This document shows, in pieces, positions 1-26,655 of a stretch of 26,655 nucleotides of DNA; the first letter of the stretch is position 1; every line of letters starts with the position of its first letter. Source of the stretch: a virus. Lineage: Duplodnaviria; Caudoviricetes. The DNA lies in IMG/VR virus record IMGVR_UViG_3300032330_001293, positions 1-26,655 of that record. One strand, 5' to 3'. Below the pieces are notes generated by a model. The model did not search any database and was not told where the DNA came from. It worked only from the letters and a program-made list of their open reading frames with translations. The position numbers and the translations under genes were made by a program.

Positions 1-558
1 ACCATCAGCGTTGATCTCAGAGGCAATCAAGTTCAGGCCGTCGTAGTTGGCAATCACAATCTCGTAGTCCTGCTGAATCATCTCTATGCGCCGTGAGGCT
101 TGCGTATGGTGGGCGACGATGGCGGAGCGATGGATAACACTGCGGTTGATGTCACCCATCCATGCGCTGTGCATGATAGACAGCGGACAGAGAATCAGCA
201 CACGACGAACTTCACCACGCTTCATCAAGAAGTCAGCCGCCCACAATGCTGAGAGCGTCTTGCCAGTGCCGGGGTCGTTAAAGCAGAACGCTCTGCGGTG
301 TAATGTGAGGAAAGCCGCTGTCTCTATTTGGTGAGCCATTGGTATAAACTTTCCGGGCCAGTCGTAGCGCCTAGTGATAGGCGACGGCACATCCTTCACA
401 CCAAGGTTGCGTAGCACCCGAGCCTCATCAAGCCCCCAGTACACAGCAACTTCATAGATGCCGTTCTCTTCAGACAACACCTTGTGCTTTGGAATGATCG
501 CGTACTTGTGCGGGTTGCGCGTGCGCAGTACGAGCGCTTTGTCATCAACGATCTGCAT
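1..558 (-). CDS. SNF2-family (SF2) phage helicase, N-terminal part; runs off the window edge
   Basis: Not in the ORF track. Manual translation from ATG at 558: MQIVDDKALVLRTRNPHK...PMAHQIETAAFL...FNDPGTGKT (Q motif, Walker A)...VLILCPLS (motif Ia)...IVIANYD. Open to position 1. Confidence 0.9.
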   Translation of the reverse strand, partial: MQIVDDKALVLRTRNPHKYAIIPKHKVLSEENGIYEVAVYWGLDEARVLRNLGVKDVPSPITRRYDWPGKFIPMAHQIETAAFLTLHRRAFCFNDPGTGKTLSALWAADFLMKRGEVRRVLILCPLSIMHSAWMGDINRSVIHRSAIVAHHTQASRRIEMIQQDYEIVIANYDGLNLIASEINADG

Positions 559-883
559 CTTCTCTTTCCGTCAAAACGTAGTAGTACAGTGTTTCGTCCA
601 TATCCATGCGCGATACTTTTCGCTGTTCAACTAGCGATCTGTTTGCTAACTCTTGCGCTACGTTTGCTTCGCCGCGATCTCCCGCGTTCCACATATCGTC
701 GTGTGTCACCGCCCTTGAACCGAACTGCACCATCCAAAGATCACGCAGTACTTCCGTTGGCGTTTCTATAAGCCCTGTGGGGTTACCTCCGTTTAAGTGT
801 ATTTTCCCAAGCATGTTTCCCCCACGCGGGTCACTCCACCCCATTGCGTATCGCTCAGTAGCTTTGTATTTCATCGTGCTCAT
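545..883 (-). CDS. Small protein, paralog family 1 member A; N-terminus resembles a major-capsid C-terminal motif
   Basis: Overlap-coupled to neighbours. Shares the LxDLWxxxFG core with 880-1224 and 1240-1704. N-terminus is MKYKATERYAMGWSDPRG. Confidence 0.8.
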   Translation of the reverse strand: MSTMKYKATERYAMGWSDPRGGNMLGKIHLNGGNPTGLIETPTEVLRDLWMVQFGSRAVTHDDMWNAGDRGEANVAQELANRSLVEQRKVSRMDMDETLYYYVLTEREDADR

Positions 884-1224
884 GCGCCCTCCTTAAGCCT
901 AGACCATGGCGTTGTGTCTGAGCGATGGTTAAGCTCTTCCATCATTTTGTTTTGGTGCAGTCGTGCGGAAGCATCGCACCAAAAGTCGTCTTCTAACTCT
1001 GACACATCTACCCACGTATCTCCGAAACGTGCACGCCACAGATTGACTAGCTCTGATAAAGGTATTGAGTACACAGGGTCCTTGTTAGGGTTGAACACCG
1101 TCATTATTGTGGGGTCAGGGTCTATGTGCTGAAAATATTTTGCGTATTCAGCAGGGCTCATTCCAAGTTTGGCCGCCAGTGCTATCTGTGACGGGTTCAT
1201 TAATATTTGTTTTACTTTTGCCAT
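880..1224 (-). CDS. Small protein, paralog family 1 member B; N-terminus resembles the scaffold C-terminus
   Basis: AGGAGAAGC RBS. Core LVNLWRARFGDTWVD. Residues 7-28 are 11/22 identical to the C-terminus of 24145-25101. Confidence 0.85.
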   Translation of the reverse strand: MAKVKQILMNPSQIALAAKLGMSPAEYAKYFQHIDPDPTIMTVFNPNKDPVYSIPLSELVNLWRARFGDTWVDVSELEDDFWCDASARLHQNKMMEELNHRSDTTPWSRLKEGA

Positions 1225-1239
1225 TCGCTTCTCCTTGAT

Positions 1240-1704
1240 TTATTCTGGTCTGCGGCACACGTACCGCGCTCGATCTGTTAGATAGTGCGTCTCAAGCTCG
1301 CCCATTTGTTTGAGCCTTCGGTACGCTAGCCTAAAGAAGTTATCGCCTTCAACATCCACTAGGTCAATCCATTCGTTTCCATAACGTGTTACCCAGAGAT
1401 CGATTAGCGAACCGACTGACACGTTGTAGGCTTCATGCTCAAGCTCTTTGCTTGTGGCAGGCGTGTGTGTTTCGCCTGTAATCTTTCCTATCGTGTGTTG
1501 CCCCGCCGCTTGTGAAAGCACATTGTTGTACTGCTGTTGCGCCATGTGTGCGTTTCCAACAGTGGTGTTAGTCCACATAGCTTGCCCCAACTGGTTCAGA
1601 GATTGTTGAGCGGGGCCAATCGCACCTTGCAGACCTGTCGTACCTTGAAGTCCCTGCGCGGCGTTCTGAGCGCCGCTACCGAATAGGTTGTTTAGTAGTG
1701 ACAT
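1240..1704 (-). CDS. Small protein, paralog family 1 member C; Q/G/A-rich N-terminus with a Gly-X-Y stretch
   Basis: TAATG overlap with the upstream gene. Core LIDLWVTRYGNEWID. Confidence 0.85.
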   Translation of the reverse strand: MSLLNNLFGSGAQNAAQGLQGTTGLQGAIGPAQQSLNQLGQAMWTNTTVGNAHMAQQQYNNVLSQAAGQHTIGKITGETHTPATSKELEHEAYNVSVGSLIDLWVTRYGNEWIDLVDVEGDNFFRLAYRRLKQMGELETHYLTDRARYVCRRPE

Positions 1705-1970
1705 TATTTTATTGAGTGGTCTGATTTGCGAGCGTATGAACGGTTCGCACTTGCATCTTTGACGCGCAGGTTTGAGCGCACAGTCTTGCCGCCTTTTGAG
1801 AGCGCTTTCTTGTGGTCAACATCTTTGCCGTCACCCTTGTGCACGAGGCCTTCCTTCTCCATCATGGCGCGTGCTTTGTTACGAGCGGCGCGTTTCTTTT
1901 TCACAGCGGGCGTGCCATCGTACTGCTCGTACTCTTTGGCGTAGGGGCGGGGTTTGTTTACGTAAGGCAT
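1704..1970 (-). CDS. Small HNH-type endonuclease-like protein
   Basis: DVDHKKALSKGG...NLRV...ANRS fits the HNH pattern; basic N-terminus. Confidence 0.75.
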   Translation of the reverse strand: MPYVNKPRPYAKEYEQYDGTPAVKKKRAARNKARAMMEKEGLVHKGDGKDVDHKKALSKGGKTVRSNLRVKDASANRSYARKSDHSIK

Positions 1971-1978
1971 GTTAGTTC

Positions 1979-2293
1979 CTATCTTGCTTGGTTAATTTTG
2001 GACACGGATTTGAGCGCATCTACTACGCGCATCGGTTGGTCTTTGTCCGTCTTGATCTTCATCACGTCATGGGCTAAACGTAACGCCATAACTGTCGCAC
2101 ATTCTGGGTGAAACCACAATGACACGTAGCCCTCAATGTGGTCGTGAAAATTTACCATGCGCGGGTCTTTGCTCTGCGTTAGCACGCCGTGGGCTGAGTG
2201 CTCAATGGCGGGTTGGTCTTCTCTAATATCTCCGTGGCAGATGTGACATTTGCATGGGGTCATCATGAAGTCGTTTGGGTAATGAACAGCCAT
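1979..2293 (-). CDS. Hypothetical Zn-binding protein
   Basis: CHIC...FHPEC (CxxC...HxxC); AGGAG RBS. Confidence 0.7.
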   Translation of the reverse strand: MAVHYPNDFMMTPCKCHICHGDIREDQPAIEHSAHGVLTQSKDPRMVNFHDHIEGYVSLWFHPECATVMALRLAHDVMKIKTDKDQPMRVVDALKSVSKINQAR

Positions 2294-2302
2294 TTGTTTC
2301 TC

Positions 2303-2968
2303 CTAGTGTTTCTTATTAAATTCGCAGGTTTTTACTGGGCACCAACCGCACAGAGGTGTTTGGTTCGGGTTCCACACATCGTTGGCAAAGCTTGCTTCAA
2401 GCCGCGCAGTACGCTCACGGTAGTCCCACCAGTGTTTGTCGATGTCTTCTCGCGCCATGGACATCTTGACCATGTCGTTCTTGACAATGAATAAAAGTGC
2501 AGAGTTAACTTTGCGGATGTGCGGGAAGTGCGCAAACACCATGAGCGACATGAGCACAAGCTGATCTCTGTCTGGGTACTTGTTGTTGCCAGTCTTCCAG
2601 TCGCCCACCCACGCCGTAAGGTTGTCGTCATCAACGACAAGGATGTCAGCAATGCCACGCACCCATACGTCTTTGTCTTTCCAACCAGTTGGCTTGAGGT
2701 CCACAGTCAGCGCCATCTCATACTCTGCAAGCTTGCGCCCATTCTTCTTGAGCATGGCGTCCACCACAGGCTTGAACTGTTCGTACTCGGCAGGTATCGG
2801 TTTGCCGTCCCTGATGTAGAACTCAATAGCTTCATGCACCTGATTGCCGTAGCGCGTTGCCTCAGTCTCAACGAACGGGTAGTTCTTTAAGACCTTGACC
2901 TCTTGGTATCTACGTGCGCATCCCTCGTAGTCTTTGAGGGAGGAGTGTGACCATGCGGGTTGTTTCAT
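2303..2968 (-). CDS. PD-(D/E)XK (Cas4/RecB-like) exonuclease
   Basis: WSHSSL..YEGC, G..VHEAIE, RGIADIL, DWKTG, QL..., and C-terminal CGWCPVKTC cysteine cluster. Confidence 0.9.
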   Translation of the reverse strand: MKQPAWSHSSLKDYEGCARRYQEVKVLKNYPFVETEATRYGNQVHEAIEFYIRDGKPIPAEYEQFKPVVDAMLKKNGRKLAEYEMALTVDLKPTGWKDKDVWVRGIADILVVDDDNLTAWVGDWKTGNNKYPDRDQLVLMSLMVFAHFPHIRKVNSALLFIVKNDMVKMSMAREDIDKHWWDYRERTARLEASFANDVWNPNQTPLCGWCPVKTCEFNKKH

Positions 2969-3171
2969 AAGTTTGGGTATTGGTTGTATTTTGTAAAGGT
3001 GTCAAAGACGTCGTAGATGAGAGGGCGATTTTCGCGCAGATAGACTGCTAACGAACGACCATTCGGGGTGACTATGTAAGCACCGCGTTGCTTTTCCACT
3101 ATCTCCCAACCTGCAATCATCATTGCGTCGAACATGGCCTGCTCTTCAGAGTTTCGCAGAGTTAACGGCAT
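2965..3171 (-). CDS. Small hypothetical protein (start 3171 or 3135)
   Basis: Fills the gap between genes with an ATGA overlap to the exonuclease. The 3324 start in the track overlaps the upstream gene extensively. Confidence 0.55.
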   Translation of the reverse strand: MPLTLRNSEEQAMFDAMMIAGWEIVEKQRGAYIVTPNGRSLAVYLRENRPLIYDVFDTFTKYNQYPNL

Positions 3172-3442
3172 CGCATAACCTATTTGCAAAAGCTGTAACA
3201 AAGCGCTCGTTGGCGCACAGGTCGTGCCCCATGTCGTACAGGATGGCATGCGTAAGCTCATGCCAGAATGTGTCGTCAACCTCTTCTTGCTCAAACGTGT
3301 TGCCGTGATTGTCGAACTTGGCAATCTCGATGCGGTTCTCGTCGAAGTACGTGCGCCCCATGGCGGCGGGGTCTTGTATTGTCTGTGGGCGCGTAATCTC
3401 GTACGTCTTTTTGCCCACGCTGATGCGTCTTGGTATCTGCAT
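3146..3442 (-). CDS. Small HExxH zincin-like metallopeptidase-domain protein
   Basis: GRTYFDENRIEI...DTFWHELTHAIL...NERFV. Confidence 0.75.
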   Translation of the reverse strand: MQIPRRISVGKKTYEITRPQTIQDPAAMGRTYFDENRIEIAKFDNHGNTFEQEEVDDTFWHELTHAILYDMGHDLCANERFVTAFANRLCDAVNSAKL

Positions 3443-3685
3443 TTAATTCTCCTCTACTTTTTCGTACGTCATTTCAAAGATGTCAGGCTTGCACGGGTAG
3501 TGCTCGCCCTTCACGCCTGTGATAATCCAGTCGCCCTCGGTGACTTCGTGCCCACCCTCCAGTGTGTGAATCCATCCTTTGTTTGCGCTTTCGCGGCCTC
3601 TTGGCATGATGGTGACCTTGGGATGGTCGCCATGCTTGAACCATTGTGTGGCCTCAATGACCACAGGTTTCTTTCTATACTTCAT
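3443..3685 (-). CDS. Conserved small phage protein (RKKPVVIEA...YPCKPDIFE family)
   Basis: Recognisable motifs KYRKKPVVIEA, TLEG, GDWIITGVKGE.YPCKPDIFE.TYE; AGGAGAAGC RBS. Confidence 0.85.
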   Translation of the reverse strand: MKYRKKPVVIEATQWFKHGDHPKVTIMPRGRESANKGWIHTLEGGHEVTEGDWIITGVKGEHYPCKPDIFEMTYEKVEEN

Positions 3686-3693
3686 TGCTTCTC

Positions 3694-5661
3694 CTAGTTT
3701 TTTGCTAACCCATAACGACGGTGTGCGCCACCGTCAGCGTCCAATGGAATACCTTGCATGTAGCTTGGCTCCATAGTCATTTGCGCCAAGACCCAAGTCT
3801 TAGCGTCAGCCACTTCATCGTCAGGTACAACAGCAATCAGTTCATCATGCACTGTGCCTGCGATCGGGTACTTCTTTGAGACCCTCAACATACCATCCGT
3901 CATCACAATGCGAGCCAAGGCCTGCGTGATGTTGTTCGTTATCTTCCCTGCATACAACTTGGTAGCGTGTGGCCCATAGACTGCTTGGCTCCTACCTTTG
4001 TCGTCCTTCTCATAGCGAAGATCAGGGTACAACAACTTCATTCCGTTGGGCAATTCAATCTCGCCTTTGCGGAACGTAACGCATTTATACACCAGTTCTT
4101 CACCATTGACAAGCGACCTGTGTAAAGCTGTTTCACAGAGGCTCCAGAACGCTACAACAGGGTACGCTGTTCTCCTATACGTATCTATGATTGCTTTGGA
4201 TGCAAGCGCATGGTGCAGAAGTTCCGGTGTGGTACACGTGTGCGGTATCTCCAACAGCTTCTCTTCGTTGCCTGCCATCTTGACGAACGCGCTCGCATAC
4301 TCTGAGTCAACGCCTAACTTCTTTGCGAAGTCTTTTGAGTATCGCTGAGGCGGTGCACCGAGGAAGCCTACTAACAACTGCGATGCAAACGACGCCCAAC
4401 CGAGGCCGTACCCGCACCCAAGTAATGCAGACTTCGCAGACTGTCGAAGATCTGGGTGAGTTTCTTTGGTGAGGTTCGGGATGTTGAACATCTGAGCGCC
4501 GAAAGCGGCGTAAGGGTCACCACCTGCCCTGAAGATGTTGAGCATGTCTTCGTAATCCGAAAGCCACGCGAGCACTCGCGGTTCAATTTGAGATAAGTCC
4601 CCCACGACCAGTTGGTAACCTTCGGGAGCCATAATCGCTTTGCGTAAGAACGAACCTCGCTTGAGGTTTTGCATGTTAATGGCCGAGCCTTTGGCGGCAG
4701 TCCAACGACCTGTTTGCGCACCATAGTAGGAGAGAGGTACCGGTAAGGCTCCACGTTTACTAATGTCGAGGAATCTCTGAGCCCTTGTGCGCTCGGTGGT
4801 CGATTTAACCTTAAGACGCGCTTGACAAAGTAGGGCAATGTCTTCACGTTCACTGTTGAGCAACGTCTGGAAGAGTGCATCGTTCTTTGCGAGTGCAAGC
4901 GCTGTCTTCCCTGTTGTCTTACTTGTTTTGGTAGGCGGAACAACGCCCAGTTTTGTAAGTAGTTCAGCAAACTTTGGGTTCGATGCCAGCTCAGCCTCTT
5001 CCACGCCGAGCCTCTGTAATAGTTGTTCACGAGCGTTGCCCTCCTCGGCCAGTGCCTTGATTAACATTTGTTGGTCTAACTGCAACAGCGGACGCGTGTA
5101 CATCTTGAGCGTCATGTCGATGAGCCGTAGCTCTTTCGCAGGGTAGCCTGCACGTAGGCGCTTGAAGATCTCTTCACAAAGATACACGTCATGCGCACAA
5201 TACTCGGCAAGTTCTTTCTCTATCTCAGGCGTGAGTTCTTGCAAGCCGTTGGTGTTGTGGACGGCGGCTCCCTTGGGGGGCAGGCCGAAATCCTGCGCCA
5301 GTTTCATCAATGAGTTGCCCACCTCAACACCACGTAGAGCGCGAGCCATGGAGAGAGAATCAAAAATAAAGCATGGATGCCAGTTATACGCCCACTCCAA
5401 TATAGATACATCGAACTGAGCGTTGTGAGCCAGAACAGCAGTAGTAGCAGGGTCGTAGCAACTAAGGATGCGTGGTAACTCGTCGGCTCTGTACCATTGT
5501 GTGCGTTTGTCTGAGCCGTACTCATGGATGCACGCTCCGAAAGCTTTGAATCTTGGGTCACGAATGTACTCCTCGGTTGTCATCTTGGACAGCGTGTACT
5601 CTTTGCTGTCCCATCGTGTTTCAAAATCGACTGTGATGATTTGTTTGAATGGCTTGCTCAT
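3694..5661 (-). CDS. polA: DNA polymerase, family A, with 3'-5' exonuclease domain
   Basis: ExoI VDFET, ExoII HNAQFD, ExoIII YCAHD; TGRW; motif A DLSQIEPR; motif B KSALLGCGYG; motif C TVHDEL. Confidence 0.96.
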   Translation of the reverse strand: MSKPFKQIITVDFETRWDSKEYTLSKMTTEEYIRDPRFKAFGACIHEYGSDKRTQWYRADELPRILSCYDPATTAVLAHNAQFDVSILEWAYNWHPCFIFDSLSMARALRGVEVGNSLMKLAQDFGLPPKGAAVHNTNGLQELTPEIEKELAEYCAHDVYLCEEIFKRLRAGYPAKELRLIDMTLKMYTRPLLQLDQQMLIKALAEEGNAREQLLQRLGVEEAELASNPKFAELLTKLGVVPPTKTSKTTGKTALALAKNDALFQTLLNSEREDIALLCQARLKVKSTTERTRAQRFLDISKRGALPVPLSYYGAQTGRWTAAKGSAINMQNLKRGSFLRKAIMAPEGYQLVVGDLSQIEPRVLAWLSDYEDMLNIFRAGGDPYAAFGAQMFNIPNLTKETHPDLRQSAKSALLGCGYGLGWASFASQLLVGFLGAPPQRYSKDFAKKLGVDSEYASAFVKMAGNEEKLLEIPHTCTTPELLHHALASKAIIDTYRRTAYPVVAFWSLCETALHRSLVNGEELVYKCVTFRKGEIELPNGMKLLYPDLRYEKDDKGRSQAVYGPHATKLYAGKITNNITQALARIVMTDGMLRVSKKYPIAGTVHDELIAVVPDDEVADAKTWVLAQMTMEPSYMQGIPLDADGGAHRRYGLAKN

Positions 5662-5891
5662 TTTTGTTTTCTTTCTCCAAGTACTTTATTACTCCACTCA
5701 ACCTTGTAGATGCCGCCATTCAAGTCAAAGTCAATTCGTAAGTTGCACTCGACAAGGTACGGGTGCAAACCCACACCCAACCCATCCCTGTTCTGACTAA
5801 CTCTGTAATACTTGCTGACACATGTCTTGCCGCGATCTTCTTCAGGAATAATCTGCCTGTACAGTGGTTCAGGTGTTTTTGATTTGCTCAA
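5658..5891 (-). CDS. Hypothetical protein
   Basis: 4-nt overlaps with both neighbours. Confidence 0.7.
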   Translation of the reverse strand: MSKSKTPEPLYRQIIPEEDRGKTCVSKYYRVSQNRDGLGVGLHPYLVECNLRIDFDLNGGIYKVEWSNKVLGERKQK

Positions 5892-6169
5892 TTAAATTGC
5901 TCCTTTGGTGGTGCGTCGAGGAGATTTAAAAAGCCGAAAAAATCGTTTGCCGCCAACATGAGTTGCGACGCCTCCATCTCATCACAATTTAGGGTGACGA
6001 CTCCTGCAAACTCATCCTCTGCGCGGCCAATGATGACAACAGCCTGCGCTTTGCCTTCTCCATAACACATCACCAACTTGTGTATCAGCAACTTGAAGTG
6101 CGCCTGCTCTTCGTCCGACATCGCCTCAACGCGTCGTTCTAATTCTTTCTGCGACATTGACTCGCTCAT
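5888..6169 (-). CDS. Hypothetical protein
   Basis: GGAGG RBS; overlap-coupled. Confidence 0.75.
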   Translation of the reverse strand: MSESMSQKELERRVEAMSDEEQAHFKLLIHKLVMCYGEGKAQAVVIIGRAEDEFAGVVTLNCDEMEASQLMLAANDFFGFLNLLDAPPKEQFN

Positions 6170-6450
6170 GATAAGACCTCCTTTAAAGTGTGTATGTTGT
6201 CCTCGTTGATGACAACTGCCGTCCCCCCTGCGCCACGTATGCGGCTTAGATGGGCTTCTTGTAGAGCGGTGGTTTTACCCTTACCCGCTTTTGCTTCAAT
6301 GCCGACGAACTTACCGCCAGCACACACGAGAAAGTCAGGCACGCCCGAGTTCCCGTATCCTGTCCCGATGGGCATGGCGTAGTACATGCCAAGCTCATCA
6401 AGAATCTTCCTGATCTGTTTCTTCACTTTCACTTCTGGTGTTGAAGCCAT
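6166..6450 (-). CDS. VRR-NUC family nuclease (putative Holliday junction resolvase)
   Basis: TPEVKVK, GVPDFL, GIEAKAG, TALQ motifs. Confidence 0.88.
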   Translation of the reverse strand: MASTPEVKVKKQIRKILDELGMYYAMPIGTGYGNSGVPDFLVCAGGKFVGIEAKAGKGKTTALQEAHLSRIRGAGGTAVVINEDNIHTLKEVLS

Positions 6451-6847
6451 GTTCTATCTCCATCTTTACTATGCTTGTGCCGTAGACCATTGCCGCCTGC
6501 ATCTGGCGTGAGTAGTTGTACGAGTCTACTGAGTGCCCCCACCACGCCTGCGTCTTCGCTTCTATCTGTCCGCAGTGAATGTCCAACTCCTCGCCTGTCA
6601 CCAGTTTAAACCCATCAGGTGTGGCGATCATGACTTCTTCAGTACGAAGCCTGTTGTAGCGATTGGCAAGTATCATGGCCTCGTCACGCTGTTTGTACAG
6701 CTCACCAATACGTTGCTCCATGTACTTGTCTTTATGTTTGTGGTCGGTCAGCTTGTCCTGCAACAGCCGCACCTGATTCTTCAACTCCTCCACAACATCT
6801 TTCTGAGCGAGGCGTTCAAACTTCTTTTGTTTCCATGCTGCCGTCAT
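6398..6847 (-). CDS. Hypothetical protein, paralog family 2 member E (coiled coil + AxRYxxL domain + variable tail)
   Basis: ANRYNRLR...G...T.EELD aligns by eye with 6844-7125; ATGA coupling. Confidence 0.75.
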   Translation of the reverse strand: MTAAWKQKKFERLAQKDVVEELKNQVRLLQDKLTDHKHKDKYMEQRIGELYKQRDEAMILANRYNRLRTEEVMIATPDGFKLVTGEELDIHCGQIEAKTQAWWGHSVDSYNYSRQMQAAMVYGTSIVKMEIEHGFNTRSESEETDQEDS

Positions 6848-7125
6848 TTTCGATTCTCCTTGATTGTCATTGTGAGTTCTTTCTCCAATATCTTTAACGC
6901 GTGCGTTGTGATGCTTGCAGGGGTGAGTAACCCTGTGCGGATTTCCAATGTATCAATGTAGGCGTCGATCTCTTCGTATGTTTCAAAGTGCAAGGCACCT
7001 TTGTTCTTATCCATGATGACGAGTGTGTCGACAAAGTACTTTAACTTGCGGTAACGCATAGCGTCTTTGAACTGTGCTTCGCCTGTGTCTTTGACGTATT
7101 TGTATTCGTGTGTTTGTGTATCCAT
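6844..7125 (-). CDS. Hypothetical protein, paralog family 2 member D (DAxRYRxL domain + coat-like tail)
   Basis: GGAGAAGC RBS; DAMRYRKLK...EEIDAYID resembles the common phage DAERYRWLR...LDAAID motif. Confidence 0.8.
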   Translation of the reverse strand: MDTQTHEYKYVKDTGEAQFKDAMRYRKLKYFVDTLVIMDKNKGALHFETYEEIDAYIDTLEIRTGLLTPASITTHALKILEKELTMTIKENRK

Positions 7126-7146
7126 TTGCTTCTCCAGTTATTAGGT

Positions 7147-7265
7147 GAGGGGGTTAAGTAGATTCCGCGCCCCCTCGTATCGCGGTGGGGAGTGGCAACA
7201 AGTGGTTTCCTTCGGTCGCCGGACTGACGATCACCTGTTGCCGACAAAGTGTGGTTGCATCTACT
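7147..7265 (-). ncRNA. Candidate structured RNA (three-way junction with pseudoknot)
   Basis: Intergenic. Complementary pairs: 7157-7163/7259-7265, 7194-7204/7232-7242, 7165-7169/7181-7185, and crossing pair 7170-7176/7147-7153. Confidence 0.55.
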
Positions 7266-7297
7266 AGGCTTGCACAAATCGTCTTTATCACACTTCG

Positions 7298-7465
7298 TCA
7301 GTCCTCGGTTCTTTGTTTGTAGTACTTCTTCGGCATGGGCGCGTGCTTCTCAAGCATCTTGCGTATCCATGCGACACCGCCCAAGTCTTTCAACATGGCT
7401 CGGTGGGTTAGCGTTAGTCGTAGTTCCGCACGTGTCAGAGGCTCAACTGGCTTTGGTCTTGGCAT
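7298..7465 (-). CDS. 55-aa protein, possibly ribbon-helix-helix DNA-binding
   Basis: Below the track cutoff: MPRPKPVEPLTRAELRLTLTHRAMLKDLGGVAWIRKMLEKHAPMPKKYYKQRTED. Confidence 0.65.
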   Translation of the reverse strand: MPRPKPVEPLTRAELRLTLTHRAMLKDLGGVAWIRKMLEKHAPMPKKYYKQRTED

Positions 7466-7643
7466 TTAACAAGTTCCTTGTGGTTGTTCGTTTCGTCCAA
7501 CATACTGCACAGTACCATTTAGACGGGCTCATCTGGATGCCCCCCTCAGGGGGGCGCATCTCTTCACATTTGTTGCACAGCTTGTGCTTGTGTATGGGTT
7601 GCTTCCCGCCAATCGCAAGCTGTTGTTTTGCAAATCCACTCAC
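7443..7643 (-). CDS. Small Zn-ribbon protein
   Basis: CNKC...CAVC; coupled to the glutaredoxin stop codon. Confidence 0.7.
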   Translation of the reverse strand: MSGFAKQQLAIGGKQPIHKHKLCNKCEEMRPPEGGIQMSPSKWYCAVCWTKRTTTRNLLNAKTKAS

Positions 7644-23516: not shown

Positions 23517-23707
23517 TTCAAGACTTCGCACACGTATTGCGCGACCAAATACGTAAAGACATGAACAACTATGCCGACGACTTGGCTGGTGGTATCTGTC
23601 GTTCCTTTGAGGAATACCAAAAACTCTGCGGTGTTATTTCGGGTCTGGCTCTCGCAGAGCGTTACATCCTTGACCTGCTTGAGAAAGTCGAAAAATCAAA
23701 TGAGTGA
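23513..23707 (+). CDS. Small conserved head-module protein
   Basis: Coupled to the portal; LAGG..SFEEYQKLCGVISGL. Confidence 0.8.
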   Translation: MIQDFAHVLRDQIRKDMNNYADDLAGGICRSFEEYQKLCGVISGLALAERYILDLLEKVEKSNE

Positions 23708-24134
23708 ACTCATTCTGCCACCCGGTATTTCGTTGCCGCCCCATATTCAGCCGCTGGACAAACCAGAAGCCGAAGATGACAACGAGACAAAAGCAGGTGC
23801 ACTGCCCACCCCAACAGGTTGGAAGCTGCTCTGCGTCGTGCCTGAAGTCGAACAAAAGATTGCAGGTACAACACTGGATCTCGTGAGAGATACCGCCACA
23901 CTGCGTCAAGAAGAACACGCCACTACGGTGCTGTTTGTATTGCGCGTAGGCCCTGATGCGTACAAAGACACCGCCAAGTTCCCCAACGGAGCATGGTGTA
24001 AAGAAGGCGACTTCGTGCTTGTCCGCACATACTCCGGCACAAGATTCAAGATCTTTGGCAAGGAGTTCCGTCTCATCAACGATGACCAAGTTGATGCTGT
24101 TGTGCTAGACCCTCGCGGCTTGACCCGCGCTTGA
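23700..24134 (+). CDS. groES: GroES-like co-chaperonin
   Basis: PTGWKLL, VLRVGPDAY, CKEGDFVL...YSGT, FRLINDDQVDAVV; probable start at 23700. Confidence 0.88.
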   Translation: MSELILPPGISLPPHIQPLDKPEAEDDNETKAGALPTPTGWKLLCVVPEVEQKIAGTTLDLVRDTATLRQEEHATTVLFVLRVGPDAYKDTAKFPNGAWCKEGDFVLVRTYSGTRFKIFGKEFRLINDDQVDAVVLDPRGLTRA

Positions 24135-24144
24135 AAGGAAGAAC

Positions 24145-25101
24145 ATGGCTATAAAAGATGAGTTCAAGTTCCCCGACGAAATCGAGGACAAGAACACGCC
24201 CGAGCTTGAGATTGAGATTGAAGGCGAAGGTGAAGTAGACATCGAGATTGAAGACGACACCCCTGAACGTGACAGAGGCCGCAAGCCTTTGGACAAGGAA
24301 GTGGCGGACCCCACAGACGAAGAGATCGAAACTTACTCTGACAAAGTTAAGACGCGTATCAAGGAACTGACGCATGCCCGCCACGACGAGCGACGTGCCA
24401 AAGAAACCACACTTCGTGAAAAACAAGAGCTGGAGCGTCTAGCACAGCAGTTGATTGAGGAGAACAAACGCCTCAAGCAAAACGTTTACACAGGACAAGA
24501 AGCGATCATTGAAGGTGCGAAGTCAAAGGCGGAGGCAGAACTTGCCATGGCCCGTCGCAAACTCAAAGAAGCGCAGGAGTCCTACGATACTGACGCAATC
24601 ATTGCCGCACAAGAAGAGGTGATGGACGCCAAGATCAAAGTTGAACAAACAAAGAATTTTCGGCCTACCCCTTTACAGGAAGAAAATTTTGATGTACAAA
24701 CGCCTCAAGCCCAACCTGCAAAGGTTGAGCCCGACGAAAAGACTCTGCGCTGGCAGGCAAAAAACCAGTGGTTCGGGCAACAAGGGTTTGAGGAATACAC
24801 CAGCTACGCACTAGGGCTGCATCAAAAGCTAGTCACAAACGGAGTGGATCCCCGCTCTGCTGAATACTTCGAGCAAATTGATGCTCGCATGAAGTCAACG
24901 TTTCCTGATTTGTTTGGGCAAACGAATGACAAGCCAAGGTCTGGTGAGGTTCAAAAGAAGCCTACGACAGTGGTTGCCTCTGTCTCGCGTTCTACGAGCG
25001 CAGGAAAGATCAAGTTGACGACTACGCAAGTAGCGTTGGCAAAGAAATTAGGTTTAACCCCGCAGCAATACGCTGCACAAGTAGCAAAACTGGAGAACTG
25101 A
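24145..25101 (+). CDS. Capsid scaffolding protein
   Basis: Acidic N-terminus, long coiled coil, NQWFG, and C-terminal helix-turn-helix QVALAKKLGLTPQQYA; lies upstream of the MCP. Confidence 0.8.
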   Translation: MAIKDEFKFPDEIEDKNTPELEIEIEGEGEVDIEIEDDTPERDRGRKPLDKEVADPTDEEIETYSDKVKTRIKELTHARHDERRAKETTLREKQELERLAQQLIEENKRLKQNVYTGQEAIIEGAKSKAEAELAMARRKLKEAQESYDTDAIIAAQEEVMDAKIKVEQTKNFRPTPLQEENFDVQTPQAQPAKVEPDEKTLRWQAKNQWFGQQGFEEYTSYALGLHQKLVTNGVDPRSAEYFEQIDARMKSTFPDLFGQTNDKPRSGEVQKKPTTVVASVSRSTSAGKIKLTTTQVALAKKLGLTPQQYAAQVAKLEN

Positions 25102-26211: not shown

Positions 26212-26655
26212 ATGGCAATTTCACGCGCACAACTACTTAAAGAGTTGCTCCCCGGCCTGAACGCTTTGTTCGGTATGGAATACGCCCGTTACGGCGAAGA
26301 GCACAAAGAAATCTACGAAACAGAGAAATCTGAGCGTAGCTTCGAAGAAGAAACAAAGCTGGCTGGCTTTGGTTCTGCTCCAGTCAAGAACGAGGGCCAA
26401 GCCATTGCTTATGACAATGCGCAGGAAGCCTTCACAGCACGTTACAACCACGAGACTATCGCCCTCGGTTTCTCCATCACGGAAGAAGCTGTGGAAGATA
26501 ACTTGTACGACAGCTTGTCTGCTCGTTACACGAAATCTTTGGCCCGTGCTATGGCTTACACCAAGCAAGTTAAAGCCGCTTCCGTTATCAACAACGGTTT
26601 CAACGGTTCATACTTGGGTGGTGACGGCGTTACTTTGTTCGGTAACAACAGCTCC
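26212..26655 (+). CDS. Major capsid protein, N-terminal 148 aa; runs off the window edge
   Basis: Not in the track. AAGGAG RBS; MAISRAQLLKELLPGLNALFGMEY...SERSFEEE...K.EG..I.YD...ARYNHETIALGFSITEEAVEDNLY. Confidence 0.93.
   Translation, partial: MAISRAQLLKELLPGLNALFGMEYARYGEEHKEIYETEKSERSFEEETKLAGFGSAPVKNEGQAIAYDNAQEAFTARYNHETIALGFSITEEAVEDNLYDSLSARYTKSLARAMAYTKQVKAASVINNGFNGSYLGGDGVTLFGNNSS

Follow-up and report, generated by a model that had tools for sequence, protein, structure and literature searches.

Capsid-protein fragments as exchangeable leaders on a predicted winged-helix carrier family in tailed phages

We describe a small phage gene, ORF A, whose protein begins with a copy of one structural element found in the major capsid protein (MCP) and continues into an unrelated domain predicted to be a winged helix. 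Relatives of this domain carry copies of other head-protein elements as leaders. The function of ORF A is putative: our leading reading, to which we give a probability of about 45%, is that ORF A is a decoy for capsid-sensing host immunity with swappable leaders.

The window, by which we mean the whole 26.7-kb tailed-phage fragment that was analysed, carries replication genes (helicase, exonuclease, DNA polymerase) on its minus strand and the terminase and portal genes, a GroES-like gene and the MCP gene on its plus strand. The head module includes a GroES-like co-chaperonin (23571-24134, plus strand), which phage HTVC023P also has, and a putative scaffold (24145-25101, plus strand), proposed because the gene lies between the GroES-like gene and the MCP gene and because the protein ends in a helix pair; the product falls in PHROG 28737, a family without known function. 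The MCP gene begins at 26212 on the plus strand and runs off the contig end at 26655, so its C-terminus lies outside the window, as the sequence-only reading had stated. ORF A (545-883, minus strand, 112 aa) is a conserved gene of the replication arm, where it stands with two tandem paralogs. It lies directly upstream of the helicase gene (1-558) and overlaps it. Its ATG at 883 shares an ATGA overlap with the stop of the upstream paralog ORF B (880-1224), and a Shine-Dalgarno-like AAGGAGG (888-894, minus strand) is found inside the last codons of ORF B. Promoter and terminator scans over 1-7500 returned matches at chance level only. Among ten runs with small shares, the four placed on the sequence gave no coverage of 701-900, which says nothing for or against expression.

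The leader of ORF A copies the last long beta-strand of the MCP and the turn that follows it. It is the peptide MKYKATERYAMGWSDPRG, encoded by the minus strand at 821-874. The sequence-only reading had called this an N-terminal peptide resembling the MCP C-terminal motif; the resemblance is real, and the placement needs only a small correction, since the peptide spans residues 4-21 and so sits near the N-terminus rather than at its very end. The motif given there as the family's C-terminal signature is real: the 80 closest MCP loci include 72 full-length MCPs, every one of which ends in VRYK[AS]RERYSFG[WF]SD[PA]LG. ORF A and 31 close homologues have the MCP leader, which is full in 27 of the 32 aligned sequences and shortened in five, and residues G15 and W16 are invariant across all 32.

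Several searches tie the leader specifically to the MCP. Queried with whole ORF A against 50,697 phage records (2.3 Gb), tblastn returned five matches, every one of them the peptide on an MCP C-terminus (best E 4e-3). On the MCP profile the leader scores 28.2 bits, compared with a maximum of 7.3 among 3,240 shuffled leaders. A scan of GTDB gave 10 loci, nine of which match the peptide alone; the tenth (L409) results from reading on past the stop codon of an MCP. The match is significant and confined to one MCP segment, which makes the leader an MCP-derived fragment: only residues 3-21 of ORF A align to the MCP, and the rest of the 112 aa models as a winged helix rather than as part of a full-length HK97 fold. 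The MCP itself belongs to the HK97-fold family (PF25209 Phage_capsid_4, above cut-off; PHROG 371), with Foldseek matches at E 5e-10 to encapsulins and phage capsids; PDB sequence searches with the MCP gave no match. Its relatives include Pelagibacter phage HTVC023P gp40 and Caulobacter phage RW gp86, and the nearest cultured MCPs, HTVC023P among them, are 60-70% identical to the window MCP. In the predicted MCP structure the copied part is strand 285-297 with the turn to 302, which we take to lie in the P-domain sheet. Compared with this family, ORF A holds only 6% of an MCP, N-terminally on an unrelated domain and in the replication arm.

The peptide fits the MCPs of a sister lineage better than those of the carriers' own type. 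Own-type relatives stand in for the window's MCP C-terminus; one of them, L002, is 99% identical to the window MCP over 148 aa and matches the ORF A peptide at 12 of 18 residues (pairwise E 5e-7). The sister MCPs, which we call KAT-type and which are about 40% identical overall to own-type MCPs, come closer, with 16/19 identities for L224 (pairwise E 4e-10). Across the set, peptide identity is 12-16/18 for KAT-type MCPs (128 DNA variants) and 10-12/18 for own-type MCPs (73 variants), with Caulobacter phage RW at 15/18. A pattern scan retrieved 120 loci, nearly all sister-lineage MCP ends of the form MRYKATERYxxGWxDxR. The comparison of self with other phages that the sequence-only reading had proposed therefore comes out as "other". 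One KAT-type MCP gene (L143) occurs in several frame-shifted pieces, from assembly error or decay.

Diagnostic residues sharpen this distinction. All 11 carrier genomes that include an MCP end have the own-type motif, with R at position 6 and L at position 17. Of 45 leaders, 36 have T at position 6 and none has R there; at position 17, 42 have R and none has L. At the DNA level the peptide reaches at most 36/54 identical bases with own-type MCP genes and 44/54 with KAT-type genes, and synonymous codon identity is 33% and 36%, respectively. With relatives substituting for the window's C-terminus, these low DNA identities indicate that the leader did not arise by recent duplication from the MCP DNA of its own phage. 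No carrier turned up in 24 KAT-type records, 22 with a completeness of 90% or more (positive control 5/5), nor in 14 own-type records chosen through their MCP, just four of which reach that completeness. The carrier belongs to one lineage, in which it is an accessory module of patchy occurrence. The leaders' non-self residues also occur in the distant MCPs of Caulobacter phage RW, L139 and L183, and may for that reason simply be ancestral; ancestral retention and capture from another lineage would both fit.

The leader is conserved at the protein level. Among 21 A genes, leaders are 68% identical and carriers 41%, and in 193 of 210 pairs conservation is higher in the leader. Nonsynonymous divergence (pN) is 0.22 in the leader and 0.42 in the carrier, with pS at 0.67 and 0.71; the ratios are rough, because the 21 genes were selected by the presence of the motif and pS approaches saturation. 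Since synonymous sites vary freely, we rejected a role of the leader segment at the level of DNA or RNA.

The carrier is a domain of predicted winged-helix topology. Iterated profiles place a common C-terminal domain of 65-75 aa in the three ORFs at 545-883, 880-1224 and 1240-1704, all on the minus strand; direct profile comparisons among the paralogs are weak, at probabilities of 53% and 3%. In ORF A the domain, joined to the leader by a linker, spans 563-784 (minus strand), and the AlphaFold2 model (pLDDT 82-95) shows the helix-strand-helix-helix-hairpin order of a winged helix (helix 43-54, a strand, helices 61-66 and 72-81, hairpin 85-104) behind a disordered leader. Fold searches are weak and consistent with this topology (best Foldseek E 0.03; VIA Z 5-6.7), and most top fold matches are winged-helix proteins such as TFE-alpha and MarR/PadR/ArsR-like regulators. 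DNA binding is doubtful because the ORF A domain is acidic (8 K/R, 13 D/E); all three window carriers are net acidic. The carrier has no Pfam or PHROGs family assignment, with PadR, MarR, ArsR and TFE profiles considered, and single members of 44 carriers gave only sub-threshold Pfam matches. A carrier profile finds 858 database proteins among 1,075 candidates, and none of 120 carrier proteins among the matches listed bears a Pfam domain. A PDB sequence search with the carrier gave no match, and the ESM Atlas returned just viral clusters without names, all below 0.9, and weak matches of winged-helix type. Of 8,000 candidates scored in the search for longer fused forms, one matched, and it is a C paralog extended too far.

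The paralogs differ in what precedes this domain. ORF B (880-1224, minus strand, 114 aa; carrier 886-1086) has a leader at residues 6-28 (1141-1209) that matches putative scaffold residues 288-310 (25006-25074) at 11 of 23 positions (pairwise E 5e-6), and that also matches the generic HTH_3 profile weakly (E 0.016). A complex prediction that paired MCP (A4) with the ORF B leader scored 0.02, which is no answer and evidence neither way. ORF C (1240-1704, minus strand, 154 aa; carrier 1249-1443) has a Q/A/G-rich leader without a match to MCP or scaffold profiles. Such leaders (MSLLNNLFG..., MGIFDG...) are found on B carriers as well as on C carriers (window 1240-1704, L214, L320, L358, L328), and some grade into the spine-helix copy described below. 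Upstream of ORF C lies an 88-aa HNH-like gene (1704-1970, minus strand; PHROG 4590), and in many relatives the C frame runs back across this gene and comes with a Shine-Dalgarno-like site, which leaves room for an overlapping reading. Many C paralogs have long "MEKMS..." leaders that resemble the HNH-like gene translated in another frame; these were left out of the mimic count.

Head-protein copies recur across the carrier family. We sampled 180 distinct carriers, 162 of them with a leader of at least 12 residues, and called a leader a head-protein copy at 9 bits or more on an MCP or scaffold profile. By this measure 45 of the 180 bear a copy, as do 0 of 3,240 shuffles, and the other 135 have no recognised leader. 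The sources are the last MCP strand (27), the MCP spine helix (7), the MCP N-arm helix (1) and the C-terminal helix pair of the putative scaffold (10), and in the predicted MCP structure the three copied pieces correspond to helix 5-27, helix 99-127 and strand 285-297. The carriers showed no match to profiles for the portal, the two terminase subunits, the GroES-like gene and the two genes that precede the MCP.

The position held by ORF A accepts different leaders. L344 has the MCP's own N-terminus at the start of the gene in the A slot, ahead of the helicase. To avoid ascertainment by the leader motif, we also collected loci through paralog C, with the motifs themselves defined after the sequences had been viewed. 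Among 57 distinct loci found in this way that include the helicase, cassette content varies and 28 have an A gene, of which 21 begin with the MCP strand and one with the MCP N-terminus. Bare A genes (L343, L345, L381) and degenerate leaders (L209, L212, L213, L216) exist as well, which implies that the carrier has some role without a capsid piece.

Small ORFs across all loci gave 49 short MCP-profile matches: 33 in this carrier family, six in a second family, nine in true MCP pieces and one elsewhere. A reversed-sequence control gave three weak matches, none to MCP or scaffold. The second family, recognised by a coil and YRRLR..EV.IM..DG.KYL, is also tandem and is unrelated to the winged-helix carrier. 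Five of its members (L286:1492-1821, L327, L356, L359, L361) have an MCP N-arm copy as a C-terminal tail, and L326 begins with a stretch like MCP 42-78. The window has a second-family member without an MCP match (6398-6847, minus strand) and a further ORF (6844-7125, minus strand) that resembles the family by eye alone. A 60-aa ORF (L381:371, plus strand) belonging to neither carrier aligns to MCP profile positions 164-203 at 13.6 bits and has no homologue among the fetched loci.

We favour a decoy because the pieces are short, single structural elements, are under selection and are exchanged on a dispensable carrier, and because the genes sit among those expected to precede head-gene expression. 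The protein would be made with the replication genes, ahead of capsid protein build-up, and its exposed leader would bind a host sensor whose cue is a short element of the capsid. The carrier would stabilise the leader and prevent sensor activation, leaving the sensor occupied by the decoy and not switched on. The decoy may retain the high-affinity residues of the family consensus, from which the phage's own MCP would have drifted. In support, head-protein leaders occur on 45/180 carriers and in 0/3,240 shuffles, no leader matches the other head-region profiles, the L344 slot swaps in the MCP N-terminus, and 22 of 28 A genes in the paralog-C loci have an MCP leader while cassette content varies. 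The greater conservation of leader than of carrier, the apparent coincidence of copied pieces with single secondary-structure elements of the model, and the N-arm tails on a second, unrelated carrier family point the same way. The 135 carriers lacking a recognised leader, together with the bare or degenerate A genes, weaken the case.

Described sensors would differ in how readily they could be baited. Lit and CapRel are described as sensing MCP via short motifs (10.64898/2026.01.04.697583), and the predicted contacts of CapRel-SJ46 with its capsid trigger are at the P-domain beta-sheet and the spine helix (PMC9712102). Avs7, Avs8 and Avs10 are described as enveloping the folded capsid A-domain (10.64898/2026.01.04.697583), so the range of baitable sensors is limited and an 18-mer would be a poor decoy for these three. 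A free trigger peptide could also activate rather than block, since Gol activates Lit (PMC9712102). The working model for a decoy is DSAD1, the anti-DSR2 protein of SPbeta: this small phage protein takes up the site at which the host sensor is triggered by a virion protein, and so shows that competitive blocking of such a sensor exists (PMC11087589). DSAD1 is reported there from experiment and opposes a tail-tube trigger; the description cited does not present it as a copied fragment on a carrier.

The same leaders might instead arm the phage against co-infecting phages: the leader would enter a KAT-type competitor's folding or assembling capsid protein and the carrier would jam assembly, with the phage's own MCP spared. 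We regard this as unlikely. T6 in 36/45 leaders and R17 in 42/45, set against R and L in 11/11 carrier genomes, fit such a weapon, as does the carrier's occurrence in 0/24 KAT-type records (22 at least 90% complete; control 5/5), and SaPI CpmB is described as competing for capsid protein with a scaffold-like C-terminus (PMC5644958). Yet the N-arm leader of L344 and the second-family tails match the carriers' own MCP type and not the KAT type, and the possibly ancestral residues shared with Caulobacter phage RW, L139 and L183 blunt the argument from sequence type. The closest likeness to ORF B is SaPI1 CpmB, whose C-terminal segment, homologous to the helper scaffold, is borne by a distinct small domain and competes for capsid protein (PMC5644958); CpmB is described as satellite-encoded and as redirecting capsid size, with its copied part C-terminal, whereas ORF B is phage-encoded and its N-terminal piece is exchanged with MCP pieces.

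The recognised pieces all come from the MCP or the putative scaffold, as would be expected if they were address tags docking the winged-helix carrier on the phage's own scaffold, procapsid or GroES-like chaperone, for packaging or for coupling replication to assembly. The 80alpha scaffold C-termini, reported to bind the capsid N-arm (PMC5644958), and the phage's GroES-like gene lend this some colour, but a self-docking tag should follow its own MCP, and the A leader differs from it at the diagnostic sites in 11/11 genomes; the carrier is moreover present in 0/14 own-type records picked by MCP (four at least 90% complete). We hold this explanation to be rather doubtful. Still less probable, in our judgement, is a relic, a capsid fragment captured by recombination and still carried, inert, in front of a winged-helix regulator. 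In its favour, some leaders are bare or degenerate, and one ancient capture would account for all MCP-strand leaders because a quick carrier tree places the A carriers together on a single starred branch. Against inertness, the leader is conserved beyond its carrier though its synonymous sites are scrambled, and four head-protein elements and two carrier families are involved.

A broader form of the decoy reading can be put forward only tentatively. The winged-helix and second-family carriers may form a modular system that displays interchangeable head-protein elements; the displayed set would map the epitopes read by undiscovered sensors, and the leaders would be held at consensus while the true capsid escapes.

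Targeted searches of a literature collection with few subscription journals listed no published description of a gene combining a capsid piece with a carrier; one related preprint concerns host-side decoys (10.1101/2023.04.06.535777). Capsid proteins often trigger bacterial immunity, and the sources consulted describe escape chiefly as point mutation; an editorial mentions immune escape by scaffold or capsid mutations (PMC13728456). Selected, swappable capsid and scaffold fragments, if that is what these leaders are, would be a new counter-defence design. If they are decoys, they would serve as ready baits for sensors and would reveal the capsid surfaces those sensors read; if instead the pieces poison rival capsids, they would be minimal, lineage-specific assembly inhibitors.
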